16,645 bases of DNA from the NCBI RefSeq assembly GCF_003334355.1, contig NZ_QOWP01000049.1, one strand, 5' to 3'. Shown here in pieces: positions 4,571 to 16,621 of the stretch. The DNA comes from Escherichia coli (GTDB lineage Bacteria; Pseudomonadota; Gammaproteobacteria; Enterobacterales; Enterobacteriaceae). The position numbers and the translations under genes are program-made. Every line of letters begins with the position of its first letter. Position 1 is the first letter of the stretch. Below the pieces are notes generated by a model that saw only the letters and a list, made by a program, of their open reading frames with translations, was not told the DNA's origin and did not search any database.

Positions 4571-4894
<324 letters not shown>

Positions 4895-4895
4895 A

Positions 4896-6673
<1,778 letters not shown>

Positions 6674-7774: not shown

Positions 7775-8856
7775 TGCAACCTTTTGGCGTACTTGACCGC
7801 TATATCGGTAAAACTATTTTCACCACCATCATGATGACGCTGTTCATGCTGGTGTCGCTGTCAGGCATTATCAAATTTGTCGATCAGTTGAAAAAAGCCG
7901 GGCAGGGGAGTTACGACGCGTTAGGCGCAGGAATGTATACCTTGCTGAGCGTGCCGAAAGATGTGCAAATATTCTTCCCGATGGCGGCTTTGCTTGGGGC
8001 GTTGCTTGGTCTTGGGATGCTGGCGCAGCGCAGCGAACTGGTGGTGATGCAGGCTTCTGGTTTCACCCGTATGCAGGTTGCGCTGTCGGTGATGAAAACC
8101 GCCATTCCGCTGGTCTTACTGACGATGGCGATTGGTGAATGGGTCGCGCCGCAGGGCGAGCAGATGGCGCGTAACTACCGTGCGCAGGCGATGTACGGCG
8201 GCTCGTTGCTCTCTACCCAGCAAGGCTTATGGGCGAAAGATGGCAACAACTTCGTCTACATTGAGCGGGTTAAAGGTGACGAAGAGTTAGGTGGCATCAG
8301 TATCTATGCCTTTAACGAGAATCGTCGTCTGCAATCCGTACGCTATGCCGCTACCGCGAAGTTTGACCCGGAACATAAAGTCTGGCGTCTGTCGCAGGTT
8401 GATGAATCTGATCTGACCAATCCGAAACAGATTACCGGTTCGCAGACGGTGAGCGGCACCTGGAAAACCAACCTCACGCCTGACAAACTGGGCGTGGTGG
8501 CGCTGGATCCGGATGCACTCTCTATCAGCGGTTTGCACAACTATGTGAAGTATCTGAAATCGAGCGGTCAGGATGCCGGACGTTATCAGCTCAACATGTG
8601 GAGCAAAATCTTCCAGCCGCTATCCGTGGCGGTGATGATGCTGATGGCGCTGTCGTTCATCTTTGGCCCACTGCGTAGCGTACCGATGGGTGTGCGTGTG
8701 GTCACCGGTATCAGCTTCGGTTTTGTCTTCTATGTACTGGACCAGATCTTCGGCCCGCTGACGTTGGTTTATGGCATCCCGCCGATCATCGGCGCACTGT
8801 TGCCAAGCGCCAGCTTCTTCTTAATCAGCCTGTGGCTGTTAATGAGAAAATCGTAA
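7774..8856 (+). CDS. lptG: LPS export ABC transporter permease LptG, 360 aa
   Basis: ATG at 7774 overlaps the lptF stop by 1 nt (TGATG); AAGGAG RBS at 7761-7766. The track ORF starts 3 nt earlier at GTG 7771; the ATG gives the expected 360 aa. Confidence 0.92.
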
Positions 8857-10518
8857 CCGAATGAACGAATAAAGGGAGCGAAAGCTCCCTTTATTATTGT
8901 TAGCAAAGTGTGCTTCGTTCATTCCTGAAAAATAATTAAAATCCAATATATTGCAGTGGTGTAGGCATGATAAGACGCGCCAGCGTCGCATCAGGCAAAG
9001 ACAAATCGCGCCTGACTTACCTTCTTCTTCCCCCAGCAAACTCCCCAACATCCCGCGTACAATCTGATTCGTCACCTGGCGGGCGGCGCTTTTCGCCATT
9101 GTTTGCACCACACCATCTTTCTTCCCGCCGCGTGGTCCGGTAGTGCCAAACAAAATATCCTTCAATCCACCAAGAATGCCGTCATCCACCGCCACCTCTT
9201 TCCCTTTCACGGCAGGATTATTTTGCTGCTCGGCGCTTGCCTGTACGCCTTTTTGCAACATCTCATAGGCGGATTCCCGGTCCACGTCATCCTCGTACTT
9301 GCCATACACCGGAGAGTGATTAATCAAGCCATTACGCTCATCTTCCGTCACCGGTCCCATCCGCGAACAAGGCGCAATCACCATCGCCCGTTCCACCACA
9401 GAAGGGCTTCCTTTCGCATCCAGAAAAGAGATCAACGCCTCGCCGGTGCCCAGTTCCTGAATCGCCTTTTCGGTATCAAATGCCGGATTGACCCGCATGG
9501 TTTGCGCCGCAGCTTTTACCGCTTTCTGATCTTTGGGCGTAAAAGTCCGCAAAGCGTGTTGAACGCGATTACCGAGCTGGCCGAGCACGTTATCCGGAAT
9601 ATCGGACGGATTTTGCGAAACGAACCAGACGCCCACGCCTTTTGAGCGAATAAGCCTTATCACCTGCTCAATCTTATCCAGCAGTACCTGCGGTGCATCG
9701 TTAAACAGCAGATGTGCCTCGTCGAAGAAAAACACCAGTTTTGGTTTCTCCAGATCGCCCGCTTCCGGCAATTGTTCATACAACTCCGAGAGCATCCACA
9801 ACAGGCTGGCGGCATACAGTTTCGGCATCTGATAAAGCTTCTCGGCGCTGAGGATATTGATAACGCCTTTACCGTTGGCATCGGTGCGCATCCAGTCTTT
9901 GATATCCAGCATCGGCTCACCAAAGAAGTGTGCTGCGCCTTGCTGTTCCAGCGACAACAGCCCGCGCTGGATGGCACCAACCGATGCGCTACTGATATTT
10001 CCGTACTGATTCTGGAAAGATTTGGCGTTATCGCCGATGTACTGGGTAATCGCCCGCAAATCTTTAAAGTCGAGCAGTAACAGCCCCTGATCGTCAGCAA
10101 TGCGGAAGATGATATTCAGCACGCCAGACTGCACATCGTTGAGATTCAACAGCCGCGCCAGCAACAGCGGCCCCAGATCCGAAACCGTCGCCCGCACCGG
10201 ATGGCCTTTCTCGCCAAAGATATCCCACACCACCACCGGATTGGCATGCGGTTGCCAGTCATTGACGCCGATATTTTTAAGCCTTGTGAGCAGTTTTTCC
10301 GACGCCGTTCCTGCCTGCGCGATACCGGTCAGATCGCCTTTCACATCAGCCATAAACACCGGCACGCCGATTTCCGACAATGACTCTGCCAGTTTTTGCA
10401 GCGTAACGGTTTTACCCGTCCCCGTTGCGCCAGTAATCAGCCCGTGACGGTTAGCCATTCCCGGCAGTAAAAACAGTTCTGTGTCCGGCGTGCGGGCAAT
10501 TAACAGGGGTTCGCTCAT
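8839..10518 (-). CDS. yjgR: YjgR-type P-loop ATPase; ORF in this sequence is 559 codons, about 59 longer than expected
   Basis: ATG at 10518 with GGAGG RBS; Walker A GATGTGKT near the N-terminus. The ORF continues through the REP element and the lptG terminator hairpin and overlaps lptG by 18 nt; the last ~59 codons are probably read-through. Confidence 0.85.
8871..8895. terminator. Intrinsic terminator hairpin downstream of lptG
   Basis: AAAGGGAGC-GAAA-GCTCCCTTT stem-loop at 8871-8892 followed by T-rich ATTATTGTT, 15 nt after the lptG stop. Confidence 0.55.
8961..8996. repeat. REP element
   Basis: GTAGGCATGATAAGACGCGCCAGCGTCGCATCAGGC is the reverse complement of the same REP consensus seen in the 4571-4894 array. 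Confidence 0.65.
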
Positions 10519-10617
10519 GAGATTTCCTCCAGTTTCCTGCCTGGAGTATAGGCAACGGCTGTGCACTCTTCACCGCTAAATTCAGCAGATTGCGAGACGC
10601 CTTCCAAAGAGATTTAA

Positions 10618-10644
10618 GTGCCGGGCGACAGGCACCCGGCAAAG
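10618..10644 (-). terminator. Candidate ahr terminator hairpin
   Basis: Inverted repeat TGCCGGG...CCCGGCA just downstream of the ahr stop on the minus strand, followed by a modest U-rich tract. Confidence 0.3.
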
Positions 10645-10647
10645 GGA

Positions 10648-11667
10648 TCAGAAGTCGGCTTTCAGGACCACGCGGTAGCGCGCTTTACCATCGCGTACAT
10701 GCTGGATGGCGTCGTTAATTTTCGACATCGGGAACAGTTCGGTGGTCGGCGCAACCTTGCTGCGGGCGGCAAAACGCATCAGCTTACGCAGCTCATAAGG
10801 CGTGCCGGTAGCAGAACCAGAGATGCTGCGGTCGCCCGCAATTAACGTAAAGGCCGGAACAGACAGCGGCGTGAGAACCGCACCGACCGTATGGAAATTA
10901 CCGCCATAGGTCAGCGCCTCAAAATAAGGCTGCCAGTCGAGGCTGACGTTCACAGTATTGATAATGAGATCAAACTGCCCCGACAGGGCTTTCAGTGCCT
11001 GCGGATCGCGGCTATTCACCACTTTATCGGCACCCATCGCCAGTACTTCCTGCTCTTTCGCCGGATTAGAACTAAAGGCCGTCACCTCGCATCCCATTGC
11101 GTGCAGAAGTTTTATAGCGATATGCCCCAGCCCGCCAATACCAATTACCCCAACGCGGCTGGTAGCAGTGATATGGTGCATCAACAGTGGTTTAAAGACC
11201 GTGATACCGCCGCACAACAGCGGCCCGGCGGACTCGATATCAATATTTTCTGGCAGTGGAATCACCCATTGCCAGTCCGCACGCAACTTCTCGGCAAAGC
11301 CACCGCGATTCATAATCGTCGGCACCGCACCTTGCTCGCAGTTGATCTGATTACCGCTAATACAGGCGTCGCAGTGACCACAGCTACGCGCCGTCCAGCC
11401 AATCCCGACACGCTGACCGACCTGCAAACCTTTATCCTGCGCGGCGCTCCCGAGTGCCACCACGCGCCCAATCACCTCATGCCCGGCAACCAGCGGATAT
11501 TGTGAAAATCCCCATTCGTTATCGATCATCGACAGATCGGAATGACAAATCCCGCAGTAATCCACCTGCACTTCAACATCTTGTGGCTTCAGCTCACCGG
11601 GATCGTACTCATAAACTTCCAGTTCGCCGCCCGCTTCTTTTGCGGCATAGCTTTTTATCATCGACAT
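10648..11667 (-). CDS. ahr: NADPH-dependent aldehyde reductase Ahr (YjgB), Zn-dependent alcohol dehydrogenase family, 339 aa
   Basis: ATG at 11667 ([14 protein letters not shown]) with GAAGGA RBS; zinc-ligand region GHEVIGRV and Rossmann [10 protein letters not shown] motif. The track ORF is 14 codons longer from an upstream ATG without RBS. Confidence 0.9.
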
Positions 11668-11862: not shown

Positions 11863-11947
11863 GCCGAAGTGGCGAAATCGGTAGACGCAGTTGATTCAAA
11901 ATCAACCGTAGAAATACGTGCCGGTTCGAGTCCGGCCTTCGGCACCA
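11863..11947 (+). tRNA. leuX: tRNA-Leu (anticodon CAA), 85 nt, type II tRNA with long variable arm, encoded CCA
   Basis: Acceptor stem GCCGAAG/CTTCGGC, anticodon loop TTCAAAA, T-loop GGTTCGAGTCC, 3' ACCA. Confidence 0.95.
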
Positions 11948-11984: not shown

Positions 11985-12060
11985 ATGTCTGAAATCCAGT
12001 ATTTATCTACCTTTCCCGCTATATTAACTCTCTCAAGGTCAACCCATATCAACGTACATC

Positions 12061-12120
12061 TACCAACACATGTTGGTACAGATGATGGTATTTCCGGTTC
12101 GATAATGCTTGTACCAACAG
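12061..12120. promoter_or_regulatory. Repeated TACCAACA motifs upstream of the integrase gene (candidate operator or integrase/Xis binding sites)
   Basis: TACCAACA at 12061-12068, its reverse complement TGTTGGTA at 12071-12078 (palindrome with 2-bp spacer), and a third copy at 12112-12119, just 5' of the int RBS. Confidence 0.3.
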
Positions 12121-12133
12121 GGAGGGAATACGC

Positions 12134-13399
12134 ATGGCATTAACAGATATCAAAGTCAGAACAGCCAAGCCAACAGATAAGCAATATAAGCTGACTGATG
12201 GTGGCGGTATGCATCTGCTTGTCCATCCAAATGGTTCTAAGTACTGGCGTTTGCAGTACCGTTATGAGGGAAAGCAAAAGATGTTGGCACTTGGGGTTTA
12301 TCCTGAAATCACACTAGCGGATGCCAGAGTACGCCGTGACGAGGCGCGTAAGCTGCTTGCGAATGGAGTCGATCCGGGAGACAAAAAGAAAAATGATAAG
12401 GTTGAACAGAGTAAAGCACGAACCTTTAAAGAAGTCGCGATCGAGTGGCATAGCACCAATAAAAAGTGGTCTGAAGATCACGCCCATCGTGTGCTAAAAA
12501 GTCTGGAAGATAATCTTTTTGCAGCGCTTGGTGAACGTAATATCGCTGAGTTAAAAACTCGAGATTTATTAGCACCCATTAAGGCCGTGGAGATCTCTGG
12601 ACGTCTTGAAGTGGCAGCTCGTCTTCAACAGCGCACTACAGCCATCATGCGCTATGCAGTACAAAGTGGGTTAATTGATTATAACCCGGCACAAGAGATG
12701 GCTGGGGCGGTTGCTTCCTGTAATCGACAACATCGTCCGGCGCTTGAATTAAAGCGCATCCCTGAGTTGCTTACAAAAATAGATAGCTATACTGGTAGGC
12801 CGCTAACCCGATGGGCGACAGAACTCACTTTGCTGATCTTTATTCGGTCCAGTGAGCTGCGTTTTGCTCGCTGGTCAGAGATCGATTTCGAAGCGTCTAT
12901 ATGGACTATCCCACCGGAGCGGGAGCCTATTCCTGGAGTGAAGCATTCCCATAGAGGCTCAAAAATGCGTACAACGCATCTAGTGCCTCTTTCAACGCAA
13001 GCCCTTGCAATTTTAAAGCAGATAAAACAGTTTTGTGGGTCTCATGACTTGATATTTATTGGTGATCACGATTCGCACAAGCCTATGAGTGAAAATACGG
13101 TAAATAGTGCGTTACGGGTCATGGGGTATGATACAAAAGTTGAGGTTTGTGGTCATGGCTTCCGCACAATGGCCTGTAGTTCATTGATCGAATCAGGTTT
13201 GTGGTCTCGTGATGCTGTTGAACGTCAGATGAGCCACATGGAGCGAAATTCAGTGAGGGCCGCGTATATCCATAAAGCAGAACATCTGGAAGAACGGCGA
13301 TTGATGTTGCAATGGTGGGCCGATTTTCTTGATGCGAACCGGGAGAAGGGTATCAGTCCGTTTGAATACGCAAATGTTAACAATCCGCTGAGAAGGTGA
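12134..13399 (+). CDS. P4-type tyrosine recombinase / integrase, 421 aa, apparently intact
   Basis: Full-length ORF immediately 3' of a tRNA gene; GGAGGG RBS 7 nt before the ATG; sequence resembles P4-family integrases from memory; visibly lower GC than the core genes. Confidence 0.9.
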   Translation: MALTDIKVRTAKPTDKQYKLTDGGGMHLLVHPNGSKYWRLQYRYEGKQKMLALGVYPEITLADARVRRDEARKLLANGVDPGDKKKNDKVEQSKARTFKEVAIEWHSTNKKWSEDHAHRVLKSLEDNLFAALGERNIAELKTRDLLAPIKAVEISGRLEVAARLQQRTTAIMRYAVQSGLIDYNPAQEMAGAVASCNRQHRPALELKRIPELLTKIDSYTGRPLTRWATELTLLIFIRSSELRFARWSEIDFEASIWTIPPEREPIPGVKHSHRGSKMRTTHLVPLSTQALAILKQIKQFCGSHDLIFIGDHDSHKPMSENTVNSALRVMGYDTKVEVCGHGFRTMACSSLIESGLWSRDAVERQMSHMERNSVRAAYIHKAEHLEERRLMLQWWADFLDANREKGISPFEYANVNNPLRR

Positions 13400-13420
13400 C
13401 AGAAGGCTATTCACACACAT

Positions 13421-13442
13421 GCTCTTCCCCATGGGGAAGAGC
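13421..13442. other. Perfect 22-bp palindrome downstream of int (terminator or protein-binding site)
   Basis: GCTCTTCCCCATGGGGAAGAGC, 21 nt after the int stop; a T-run (13460-13472) follows about 18 nt later, too far for a textbook terminator. Confidence 0.35.
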
Positions 13443-13618
13443 AACCTGCTCCAATAAATTTCTTTTTTATTCCGGCTGATAGCACCGCAATCACCCGTTC
13501 CCTTTAAATAGCCACTTAGCATTCGGCGTAAAATTTGACAGAGAAGGACTATCTCAGCAGGAGCTTAAAGTGTGGTTTTAGGCATAATGTCAATTGACTC
13601 ACCATTTGGGAATTGTAG

Positions 13619-13951
13619 ATGATTGACATAGTTTCCCAAACGGAAAAATCACTTCCCTTCTTGGAAGAAAATCTGCGAGCACATATAAAATGGAAACAGC
13701 ACGGCGGCCCTTGTGAAATCCCCAATGGCCTGGCGTTTTGCGCAATTCACCATAAAGTCTTTGATAAAGGATCGATTGGTCTGGATGAAAATATGCGGGT
13801 ACTGGTCTCGGATGTGGTAAACGGCGGAGGGATCGTTGAGAGATTATTCTGGGATTTTGACGGGAAAACTATTGCGTTGCCACAGGTGCGTAAAAATTAC
13901 CCTTTTGAGGGGGTTGTGGAGTGGCATCGGAAAGAGGTTTTTAGGGGGTGA
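13619..13951 (+). CDS. Small ORF (110 aa) carrying only an HNH-type nuclease core; probably a 5'-truncated remnant
   Basis: Motif HGG...PNGLAFCAIHHKVFDKG resembles the C-terminal HNH core (NGLxLCxxHHxxFDxG) of larger HNH endonucleases. An in-frame TAG sits immediately before the ATG and the RBS is weak. Confidence 0.4.
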   Translation: MIDIVSQTEKSLPFLEENLRAHIKWKQHGGPCEIPNGLAFCAIHHKVFDKGSIGLDENMRVLVSDVVNGGGIVERLFWDFDGKTIALPQVRKNYPFEGVVEWHRKEVFRG

Positions 13952-14061
13952 GGTTGATAATACCGTGCCCCCATAATATTGCCATCTCTTGCATTGAGAT
14001 ATTAAAAGCTACAAATGTTCTCCCCATTTTTAAATGTAGACATTTATAGCAATATCAAAAC

Positions 14062-15060
14062 TTACTGTTCAGCTTTTTCAACAACAAAACCATTTTGCCG
14101 TACAAACTCAATCAAGAGTTCAATATTAACAATGCCCCATTGATTAGAAATAGCAACAATTTCACCAGAAGGAAGTGTAATCAACGCATCTTCATTAATA
14201 TGATAGCGACTCTTTTGCTTCTCTGGTATCTGATCGACAAGCATAACCGTCCGTTTTTTAAAGTCTTCACTTAACCCATTTATTAAATCATTATAACTTG
14301 CAGGATTAAATTGATTTATCCAATCGCGTAATAATTCAAGCGCTAATTTACGCTTATTAAGTTCTTTATCTTTATATATATACCACGTATAGTCCTTCTC
14401 TTTTTTCTGACTGCTAATTAGCTGCTCATCACGTTTTTCACGAAATTTAACTTGATATTCTTCCAATTCAGGAACCGGTATGATTTGCTCTGCATTGATC
14501 AGAACATCATCATTAAATCTATAAGGCGTCAGACGAACACATCGAATGTCTACCCCCTTATCTCTTAACCAAATCGCAGTGGTAGTCAGTTCCTTGCTAA
14601 AATCCGATGAAGCCAAAACAATTCTGATATCTTTTCCGAAATCAACAAGCTCAGTTTCATCCAGCTCAACAAATTCAAGTATTTTTTCTTTCGCATCGGC
14701 ATCGCAGTTTTGTTTTTTCAAATACGTCTGGAAATATTCACATGCTTTCGCAAAACTCATTGTGGAAATCATCGCTGCATATCGTAGTGCCTGTAACTCC
14801 ATATGCGCACCAGTTTCATCACGTTTTAATTCGATAACCACTAAATTTGCCTGTTTATCGATTGCCAATAAATCAATTCGCCGACGGCTATCTTCCCAGT
14901 CAGAAAACTCTTCGGAAATCACCAGACAATCAGGAGCAATAATATCTATGTTTTTTTTGATTGCTTCCTGTAAATCATAACGTTCCTGTAATCCTTCCAG
15001 AGTAAAGGTCGTTTTTTCTAAAGCATGTAGTTCTTTATTTGCGATATTGTACAGCGCCAC
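14062..15060 (-). CDS. Uncharacterised protein with N-terminal RecB-like PD-(D/E)xK nuclease motif, 332 aa (GTG start)
   Basis: Uninterrupted 332-codon ORF with AGGAAG RBS; very AT-rich. Residues 61-94 RIDLLAIDKQANLVVIELKRDETGAHMELQALRY give D-x(n)-ExK plus QxxxY. The C-terminal ~200 aa has no motif I recognise. Confidence 0.75.
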   Translation of the reverse strand: MALYNIANKELHALEKTTFTLEGLQERYDLQEAIKKNIDIIAPDCLVISEEFSDWEDSRRRIDLLAIDKQANLVVIELKRDETGAHMELQALRYAAMISTMSFAKACEYFQTYLKKQNCDADAKEKILEFVELDETELVDFGKDIRIVLASSDFSKELTTTAIWLRDKGVDIRCVRLTPYRFNDDVLINAEQIIPVPELEEYQVKFREKRDEQLISSQKKEKDYTWYIYKDKELNKRKLALELLRDWINQFNPASYNDLINGLSEDFKKRTVMLVDQIPEKQKSRYHINEDALITLPSGEIVAISNQWGIVNIELLIEFVRQNGFVVEKAEQ

Positions 15061-15353
15061 GTTTATCTTCCTTTTTTAACTGATTTTACAGGGACTTTAA
15101 CACAGTAAAAATTTTATTTCCTGAGCTGTAATCGATTAAGCTGATGCACTAAATGGGAATCATATAGGGTCATTTCCAGTCTCACTTATAGAAATGGCTA
15201 AAGCATGACTCTCGCCAAAACCGTGTATGTGTTGTACATAACGCGATCATCCCTCTCACAAATTGCCTTTTCTCATGGCATCTCGCCCGGTCCCCCATTA
15301 CAATCACTTTTTGTTTTTTGCGAGCTGCATTCCAGTCTTCAGAGGGTTTTTCG

Positions 15354-15959
15354 ATGATTAAAAATGACAAGGCATGGGTAGGAGACTTGCTGGGCGGGCC
15401 GCTCATGAGCAGGGAAAGCCGCGTCATTGCCGAACTGTTGCTAACCGATCCCGATGAACAGACATGGCAAGAGCAAATTGTTGGCCACAACATTTTACAA
15501 GCCTCTTCTCCTAACACCGCAAAACGTTACGCGGCAACAATCAGGCTTCGCCTGAACACGCTTGATAAAAGCGCGTGGACATTGATTGCCGAAGGTAGTG
15601 AGCGGGAACGCCAACAACTTCTGTTTGTGGCTCTGACGCTACATTCGCCGGTAGTTAAGGATTTTCTGGCTGAAGTGGTGAACGATCTGCGCAGGCAGTT
15701 CAAGGAAAAGTTGCCTGGCAATAGTTGGAACGAATTTGTTAATAGCCAGGTTCGCCAACATCCGGTACTCGCCAGCTACTCAGATTCATCTATTGCAAAA
15801 ATGGGAAACAATCTGGTGAAGGCGCTTGCTGAAGCGGGTTATGTGGATACGCCCCGCAGACGTAACCTGCAGGCAGTTTACCTTTTACCGGAAACTCAGG
15901 CAGTGTTACAGCGCCTGGGGCAACAGGACTTGATATCTATTCTGGAGGGAAAACGGTGA
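15354..15959 (+). CDS. brxA: BrxA-like protein (DUF1819-type), 201 aa; first gene of a BREX-like cluster
   Basis: ATG at 15354 with AGAGGG RBS; ~200-aa, largely helical-looking protein whose stop overlaps the next start (GTGA). Assignment is from size, coupling and gene order, not from a recognised motif. Confidence 0.55.
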   Translation: MIKNDKAWVGDLLGGPLMSRESRVIAELLLTDPDEQTWQEQIVGHNILQASSPNTAKRYAATIRLRLNTLDKSAWTLIAEGSERERQQLLFVALTLHSPVVKDFLAEVVNDLRRQFKEKLPGNSWNEFVNSQVRQHPVLASYSDSSIAKMGNNLVKALAEAGYVDTPRRRNLQAVYLLPETQAVLQRLGQQDLISILEGKR

Positions 15960-16558
15960 TAGATCCCGTTCTTGAATATCGCCTGTCTCAAATCCAGAGT
16001 CGCATTAACGAAGATCGCTTCCTCAAAAATAACGGCTCCGGAAATGAAATTGGTTTTTGGATCTTTGATTATCCCGCGCAGTGCGAACTGCAGGTACGGG
16101 AGCATTTGAAGTATCTGCTCCGGCATCTGGAAAAGGACCATAAATTTGCCTGTCTGAATGTCTTCCAAATCATCATCGATATGCTCAATGAACGCGGCCT
16201 TTTCGAGCGCGTCTGCCAGCAGGAAGTCAAAGTGGGTACTGAGACGCTGAAAAAGCAGCTTGCTGGTCCGTTAAATCAGAAAAAAATCGCTGATTTTATA
16301 GCGAAAAAAGTCGATCTGGCTGCCCAGGATTTTGTCATCCTTACCGGCATGGGCAACGCCTGGCCATTAGTACGCGGTCATGAACTGATGAGTGCCTTGC
16401 AGGATGTCATGGGGTTCACCCCACTGCTGATGTTTTATCCTGGCACCTACAGCGGGTACAACCTTTCCCCGCTCACAGACACCGGTTCACAAAATTATTA
16501 TCGCGCTTTCAGACTGGTACCAGATACGGGACCCGCAGCAACATTGAATCCTCAATGA
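15956..16558 (+). CDS. brxB: BrxB-like protein (DUF1788-type), 200 aa
   Basis: GTG start at 15956 with GGAGGG RBS, overlapping the upstream stop by 4 nt; ~200 aa; followed by a third co-directional gene. Assignment by architecture. Confidence 0.55.
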   Translation: MIDPVLEYRLSQIQSRINEDRFLKNNGSGNEIGFWIFDYPAQCELQVREHLKYLLRHLEKDHKFACLNVFQIIIDMLNERGLFERVCQQEVKVGTETLKKQLAGPLNQKKIADFIAKKVDLAAQDFVILTGMGNAWPLVRGHELMSALQDVMGFTPLLMFYPGTYSGYNLSPLTDTGSQNYYRAFRLVPDTGPAATLNPQ

Positions 16559-16621
16559 AGAGCATAATGAACCGCCCCGGAAATCCTGGAGACTAAACTC
16601 CCTGAGAAAGAGGTAAACAGG

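Follow-up and report, generated by a model that had tools for sequence, protein, structure and literature searches.

A 129-bp yjgR-ahr spacer as a probable native empty-site allele of the idn (GntII) locus in Escherichia coli

In Escherichia coli K-12, the GntII/idn locus, composed of idnK and idnDOTR, reportedly encodes the pathway for the use of L-idonate and 5-ketogluconate. Strain-specific segments, the so-called 'K-islands', are reportedly absent from O157:H7. The gene order of K-12 MG1655 is yjgR-idnR-idnT-idnO-idnD-idnK-ahr, where idnK is divergent from idnDOTR and the cassette is made of the five idn genes and nothing else. The idn genes are known to co-vary as an accessory block, being found in 83% of pks-positive and in about 31.5% of pks-negative genomes (PMC8545132). 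In ST131, idnK is missing from H30 and H22 and present in H41 (PMC5369007). In this respect, idn is one co-varying block like the K-islands and the other accessory genes of the E. coli pangenome, with no difference in kind (PMC8545132, PMC5369007, PMC10269509). The presence/absence polymorphism of idn is already known and ordinary; what the present work adds to known pangenome variation is the position of the breakpoints at the base level and the comparison with outgroups. A further feature of the neighbourhood is leuX, described as the centre of a hotspot of homologous recombination and integration (Touchon et al. 2009, PMC2617782).

The DNA studied here, referred to as the window, is a stretch of 16,645 nucleotides of an E. 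coli contig (NZ_QOWP01000049.1), to which all positions below refer. Its gene order is IS1-'yjgN-valS-holC-pepA-lptF-lptG-yjgR-ahr-leuX-integrase island. The yjgR gene (9017..10518, minus strand) encodes a DUF853/HerA-like C-terminal domain ATPase whose N-terminal 495 residues are collinear with YjgR of K-12 and of strain C9. Its start codon lies at 10516-10518 (CAT on the plus strand). The ahr gene, also called yjgB (10648..11667, minus strand), encodes an NADPH-dependent aldehyde reductase of 339 amino acids, as annotated by RefSeq in C9. The protein scored 552.9 bits against the NCBIfam equivalog NF047908, for which the cut-off is 470. The ahr stop codon occupies 10648-10650 (TCA on the plus strand) and the open reading frame reaches upstream as far as 11709. 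The spacer between the two genes, 10519-10647, is therefore exactly 129 bp long, in full agreement with the first-pass annotation, which had counted only 129 bp between the yjgR start and the ahr stop. Both the 5′ end of yjgR and the 3′ end of ahr are intact. The junction is 100% identical over 1.9 kb to that of strain C9, where RefSeq calls both yjgR and ahr. The locus is flanked at a distance of 1.2 kb by leuX (11863..11947, plus strand), a tRNA-Leu(CAA) gene detected with ARAGORN and Rfam. Since the adjacency of yjgR and ahr is a matter of gene order and not a statistical signal, chance is not at issue.

When compared with the GntII/idn locus of K-12, the window shows the same neighbourhood, valS-holC-pepA-lptF-lptG-yjgR on one side and ahr-leuX on the other, with the same yjgR leader and ahr coding sequence. 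However, in place of the five idn genes it has 90 bp containing a terminator-like hairpin that K-12 lacks. Base-level alignment to the K-12 reference, one of the checks proposed in the first-pass annotation, placed the breakpoints. Homology with K-12 ends at 10557 and is restored precisely at 10648, with the stop codon of ahr; the intervening 90 bp (10558-10647) occupy the place of 5,087 bp in K-12. No idn gene or fragment was found anywhere in the window, either by tblastn with the K-12 Idn proteins or by blastn with the K-12 cluster. The sole match of these queries corresponded to the distant paralogy of IdnD and Ahr, at 26% identity. The first-pass annotation had placed idnR-idnT-idnO-idnD-idnK between yjgR and ahr in K-12, and the MG1655 gene order confirms it. 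The accompanying proposal that the strain lacks this accessory cluster holds at the locus and across the 16.6 kb. From established pathway knowledge, loss of GntII is expected to prevent growth on L-idonate or 5-ketogluconate, while leaving the use of gluconate through GntI unaffected. The strain is thus most likely unable to use these two compounds via GntII, a minor niche trait that is variable in E. coli.

It had also been remarked at the outset that the spacer shows no scar or repeat. Indeed, the region 10440-10730 contains no direct repeats, and the two inverted-repeat pairs reported there are long-range and weak. The scar is missing because the spacer is an intact and conserved native ahr-yjgR intergenic region, not the product of a clean deletion. 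The features of a deletion scar are not seen: the window holds no idn remnants, the ends of the flanking genes are intact and the 90 bp are foreign to K-12. Instead, the spacer is homologous from end to end with the spacers of idn-less E. coli and of outgroup species, as an empty-site allele should be.

The spacer can be divided into two parts. The first is a conserved yjgR leader of 39 bp (10519..10557, minus strand), common to the idn-less and the idn-carrying alleles, the sense strand of which reads CGTTGCCTATACTCCAGGCAGGAAACTGGAGGAAATCTC followed by ATG. Within it lie a GGAGG ribosome-binding site, a TATACT hexamer resembling a -10 element and a CTCCAG/CTGGAG hairpin. The leader shows little or no change in K-12, E. 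albertii and three Citrobacter genomes, and is partly conserved in Enterobacter cloacae. The second part, delimited by the K-12 homology breakpoints, is the 90-bp segment specific to the idn-less allele (10558..10647, minus strand). Just downstream of the ahr stop codon, it carries a terminator-like hairpin (10606..10637, minus strand), GCCGGGUGCCUGUCGCCCGGC followed by ACUUAAAUCUCUUU, that was recovered by a pattern scan, by a single-strand fold and by a consensus fold. The terminator pattern matched at 10637-10616 with the tail AAATCTCTTT. In the single-strand fold of the spacer, the hairpin is present in both the MFE and the centroid structures. It is also kept in a consensus fold of six sequences from E. 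coli, E. albertii and Citrobacter, with just one compensatory pair. By sequence and fold, the element corresponds to an intrinsic (Rho-independent) terminator with a weak U-tract; termination itself is predicted. On the minus strand, the order is therefore ahr stop codon, hairpin, about 55 nt of conserved sequence, leader and ATG. A consensus promoter scan of the spacer returned no promoter, the conserved TATACT of the leader being preceded only by a poor -35 element (GTGAAG) 17 bp upstream. The 55 bp of conserved sequence probably carry yjgR promoter elements. The spacer gave no match to an Rfam family. Overall, the 129 bp appear to be a functional intergenic region rather than a scar, with putative terminator and promoter functions. 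In K-12, no terminator-like match was found in the 77-bp idnR-yjgR spacer or at the 3-bp idnK/ahr junction, and yjgR may be read through from idnDOTR in strains carrying the cluster.

The frequency of the two arrangements was determined in a collection of 5,426 complete E. coli genomes. A contiguous yjgR-ahr junction was found in 3,213 of them (59%) and the 90-bp segment in 3,223. The K-12-type idn cluster was found in 2,055 (38%), always on the chromosome and with a median of one place per genome, while about 148 genomes (2.7%) matched neither allele. Hence, the empty allele is the majority state of the species and K-12 carries a minority allele; K-12 is not the default state at the ahr-yjgR locus. 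The idn-less strains examined include O157:H7 and O111:H8. The carriers include K-12, HS, the B-strain derivative BLR(DE3), O104:H4, ST1193, F11 and 83972. In all eight E. coli examples inspected, idn lies between yjgR and ahr, including in an allele with an idnR::yjgR fusion. Some sequences of the locus also occur on plasmids. The 90-bp spacer segment had two plasmid matches, and a piece of the ahr 3′ end (395 bp, 94.7% identity) lies at 83522-83916 of the 120-kb plasmid NZ_CP172870.1, where it is annotated as a zinc-binding dehydrogenase.

In order to place the two alleles among relatives, contigs carrying YjgR were collected by a scan with this protein; the matches listed included E. albertii, two Citrobacter and two Enterobacter genomes, and the sampling did not cover Salmonella, E. 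fergusonii or Klebsiella. In E. albertii and in Citrobacter werkmanii, ahr adjoins yjgR across homologous spacers of 132 and 139 bp, respectively, both of which retain the terminator-like hairpin. The E. albertii spacer differs from that of the window at about 5 positions (about 96% identity), compared with about 89-90% identity (10-11% difference) for the flanking genes. In Citrobacter sp. FP75 and C. amalonaticus, the idn cassette occupies the ahr/yjgR site with a left junction of the K-12 type. In Enterobacter cloacae (8217-9881 of its locus) and Enterobacter sp. Ag1 (8224-9963), the glycerone kinase gene dak (TIGR02361) lies between ahr and yjgR. In Trabulsiella odontotermitis and Mangrovibacter yixingensis, the five-gene idn cassette is found at unrelated loci and homology stops at the idnR stop codon. 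These three kinds of relatives, with idn at the same site, with idn at an unrelated locus or with dak at the site, indicate that the idn cassette is portable cargo and that the ahr/yjgR spacer is a site of variable occupancy. An occupation of this site by idn in Salmonella as well was not supported, as the best Salmonella IdnR-like protein was just 56% identical.

Within the species, the detailed comparison covered seven carriers and eight non-carriers. The maximum nucleotide divergence among the seven carriers was 1.1% for the idn cassette, as compared to 3.7% for lptG, 5.7% for ahr and 6.7% for yjgR, so that the cassette is far less diverse than the neighbouring genes. In the collection, 1,973 of the 2,055 carriers were at least 99% identical to the K-12 cassette; among the matches listed, the lowest full-length one was at 99.0%, with no full-length match below it in the 95-99% class. 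The haplotypes of the flanks do not follow idn status. A search for linkage between the two showed no long allele-specific haplotype: just two sites, both adjoining the stop codon of ahr, have a fixed difference between the alleles. For instance, yjgR of K-12 is closest to yjgR of O157:H7, and DG341, which has no idn, is closest to EC42405, which has it. The window, too, is a mosaic: its stretch 9251-11750 matches strain C9 at every base, and the leuX island (12001-16600) is near-identical to both the idn-less strain A3 and the idn-carrying strain 2018-06-4CC, the yjgR of which differs from that of the window by 4-5%. The diversity of yjgR and ahr (window 9016-11667; compared over loci L085-L096) is unusually high for E. 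coli, up to 6.7% and 5.7% against at most 3.7% for lptG, and is consistent with the leuX hotspot.

The flanks of the locus are thus diverse and mosaic, as described for the leuX hotspot (PMC2617782; Oliveira et al. 2017, PMC5635113). In contrast with the integrations at that hotspot, the idn/empty polymorphism is not located at the tRNA attachment site and has neither an integrase of its own nor att repeats. The signature of a site-specific mobile element is also missing, with no direct repeats in 10440-10730 and only idn genes in the K-12 cassette. The integrase island at leuX lies 1.5 kb from the locus and is distinct from it.

Taken together, we consider it highly probable that the spacer is the native empty-site allele of a long-standing presence/absence polymorphism of idn (GntII), whose alleles are exchanged through homologous recombination of the flanks in the leuX hotspot, the idn allele probably being the younger import. 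In idn-carrying strains, the cassette takes the place of the 90 bp located upstream of the yjgR leader. The ahr hairpin is thereby lost, and yjgR comes to lie 77 bp downstream from idnR without any terminator being recognisable in between. Different E. coli lineages would trade the two alleles through homologous recombination in the core genes on either side, within the leuX hotspot, using flanking homology only and no site-specific mobile element. The idn allele would then be a low-diversity import within Escherichia that spread horizontally, although its low diversity could partly come from selection. As to polarity, we lean towards the empty allele being the older one in Escherichia, because it is found in E. 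albertii, because its predicted functional modules are conserved, because idn diversity is low and because the cassette sits at unrelated positions in other genera.

Other origins of the adjacency were weighed against this reading. The cluster sits at exactly this position in K-12 and in 38% of the genomes, and deletions at the locus are known, as exemplified by the in-frame idnR::yjgR fusion and by strain FCI56, in which ahr is partly deleted. A recent deletion of idn from a K-12-like ancestor, in this strain or in a close lineage, might therefore be envisaged. It is nevertheless very unlikely, since the 90 bp of the window are missing from K-12 and cannot be produced by a simple deletion. 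In addition, these 90 bp are present in E. albertii, in C. werkmanii and in 3,223 genomes of deep lineages, they contain the conserved terminator-like hairpin, and no idn remnant accompanies them in the window. An assembly artefact, or a relocation of the cluster within the same genome, is even harder to sustain and we regard it as extremely improbable. The window does contain at least one possible homopolymer error, and poor assemblies of the region exist, such as that of MLI104K2. Over 1.9 kb, however, the junction matches that of the complete genome C9 at 100%, and it is contiguous in 3,213 complete genomes. As for relocation, the collection has no plasmid-borne idn, the median number of places per genome is one, and every E. 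coli locus inspected has the cluster between yjgR and ahr.

An older event deserves more attention. Between K-12 and Citrobacter FP75, divergence reaches 20% for idn and 17-18% for the flanks. Because these values are similar, idn at this site could be as old as the split between Escherichia and Citrobacter, and the empty allele could come from an ancient deletion. The common ancestor would have carried idn here with the hairpin as the idnR terminator; one precise deletion of 5,074 bp would have given the empty allele, and the idn allele would later have lost about 73 bp. The idn site and left junction shared by E. coli and two Citrobacter genomes agree with such a course, as does an island of identity of 12 nt (sense TCTCTTTGCCGG) between the K-12 idnR-yjgR spacer and the first bases after the ahr stop codon of idn-less strains. 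The island is matched at 12/12 positions in O157:H7 and by an exact run of 9 nt in the window spacer, and its length was reached in 1 of 20,000 shuffles. Its presence suggests two indels between the alleles, roughly 73 bp and 5,074 bp in size, and a common intermediate needed whichever the direction of change; the island is thus consistent with the shared intermediate of an ancient deletion. It was not used as a marker of polarity, because the spacer offers two CAAAGAGA-containing positions to which it aligns. We nevertheless find the ancient deletion unlikely. It sits poorly with the cassette being at unrelated loci in Trabulsiella and Mangrovibacter, with other cargo at the site in Enterobacter and with an idn diversity within E. 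coli 3-6 times below that of the neighbouring genes. Moreover, no extant idn allele with these 73 bp came to light: the 90-bp segment is nearly as frequent as the contiguous junction (3,223 vs 3,213).

Returning to the native empty site, its main use is correct annotation, and little beyond. With cargo swap by flanking homologous recombination graded as the most likely mechanism, the locus would offer a clean example of such a swap near the leuX hotspot. A broader view, which we put forward tentatively as possible rather than probable, is that a conserved site of cargo exchange in the Enterobacteriaceae lies between the stop codon of ahr and the leader of yjgR, with at least three states, empty, idn and dak. 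The idn cassette present in 38% of E. coli would then be a young import, with at most about 1% diversity, spread over phylogroups A, B1 and B2 via flanking homologous recombination in the leuX hotspot, and yjgR would have been rewired from its own promoter to a possible idnDOTR read-through.

The yjgR coding sequence of the window deserves a separate comment. Its C-run at 9030-9034 is one base shorter than in C9 and K-12, which puts the normal stop codon (9017-9019) out of frame. The resulting open reading frame (8839-10518, minus strand) has its last four codons changed and continues for 59 additional codons into the 3′ end of lptG, giving 559 amino acids instead of 500. The region of this C-run had no exact 81-bp match in the 5,426 genomes. 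A variant with one additional base in the C-run occurs in strain A3, with a YjgR of 509 amino acids. The difference in the window reflects either a slippery homopolymer or a sequencing error.

Rare alleles were also encountered. In E. coli GCA_022550575.1 (7001-8671 of locus L100; also seen in L101), residues 1-215 of IdnR are fused in frame to residues 144-500 of YjgR, giving a protein of 556 amino acids. This fusion results from a deletion estimated at about 0.85 kb that took away the 3′ end of idnR, the spacer and the 5′ end of yjgR; the other idn genes are kept. Strain MLI104K2 (8395-9322 of its locus) was considered as an intermediate allele and dropped: its 928-bp yjgR-ahr gap consists mostly of homopolymer junk with idnR and idnT fragments of about 85% identity, and probably reflects faulty assembly or poor polishing of an idn region.

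Several features were observed elsewhere in the window. Positions 1-181 correspond to the end of an IS1 copy, which cuts off the 5′ end of yjgN (259-1188); IS1-mediated rearrangements are found in the corresponding neighbourhood of strain C9. Two naRNA4 repeat units of the REP325 type (RF02564) lie between holC and pepA at 4648-4723 and 4746-4821, and this interval is longer than in K-12 or C9 by about one 100-bp naRNA4 unit. Within pepA, a full-length Rfam match to the antisense RNA family Ysr276 (RF02850) was found at 5655-5849 (plus strand) with 174.7 bits. Finally, the leuX island (12134-16558) contains a P4-type integrase gene (12134-13399), the remnant of a phosphorothioate-dependent/HNH restriction endonuclease gene (13619-13951), a NucS-like hypothetical gene (14062-15060, minus strand), brxA (about 15357-15959) and brxB (15956-16558). 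A BREX type 1 defence system begins with the brxA-brxB pair.
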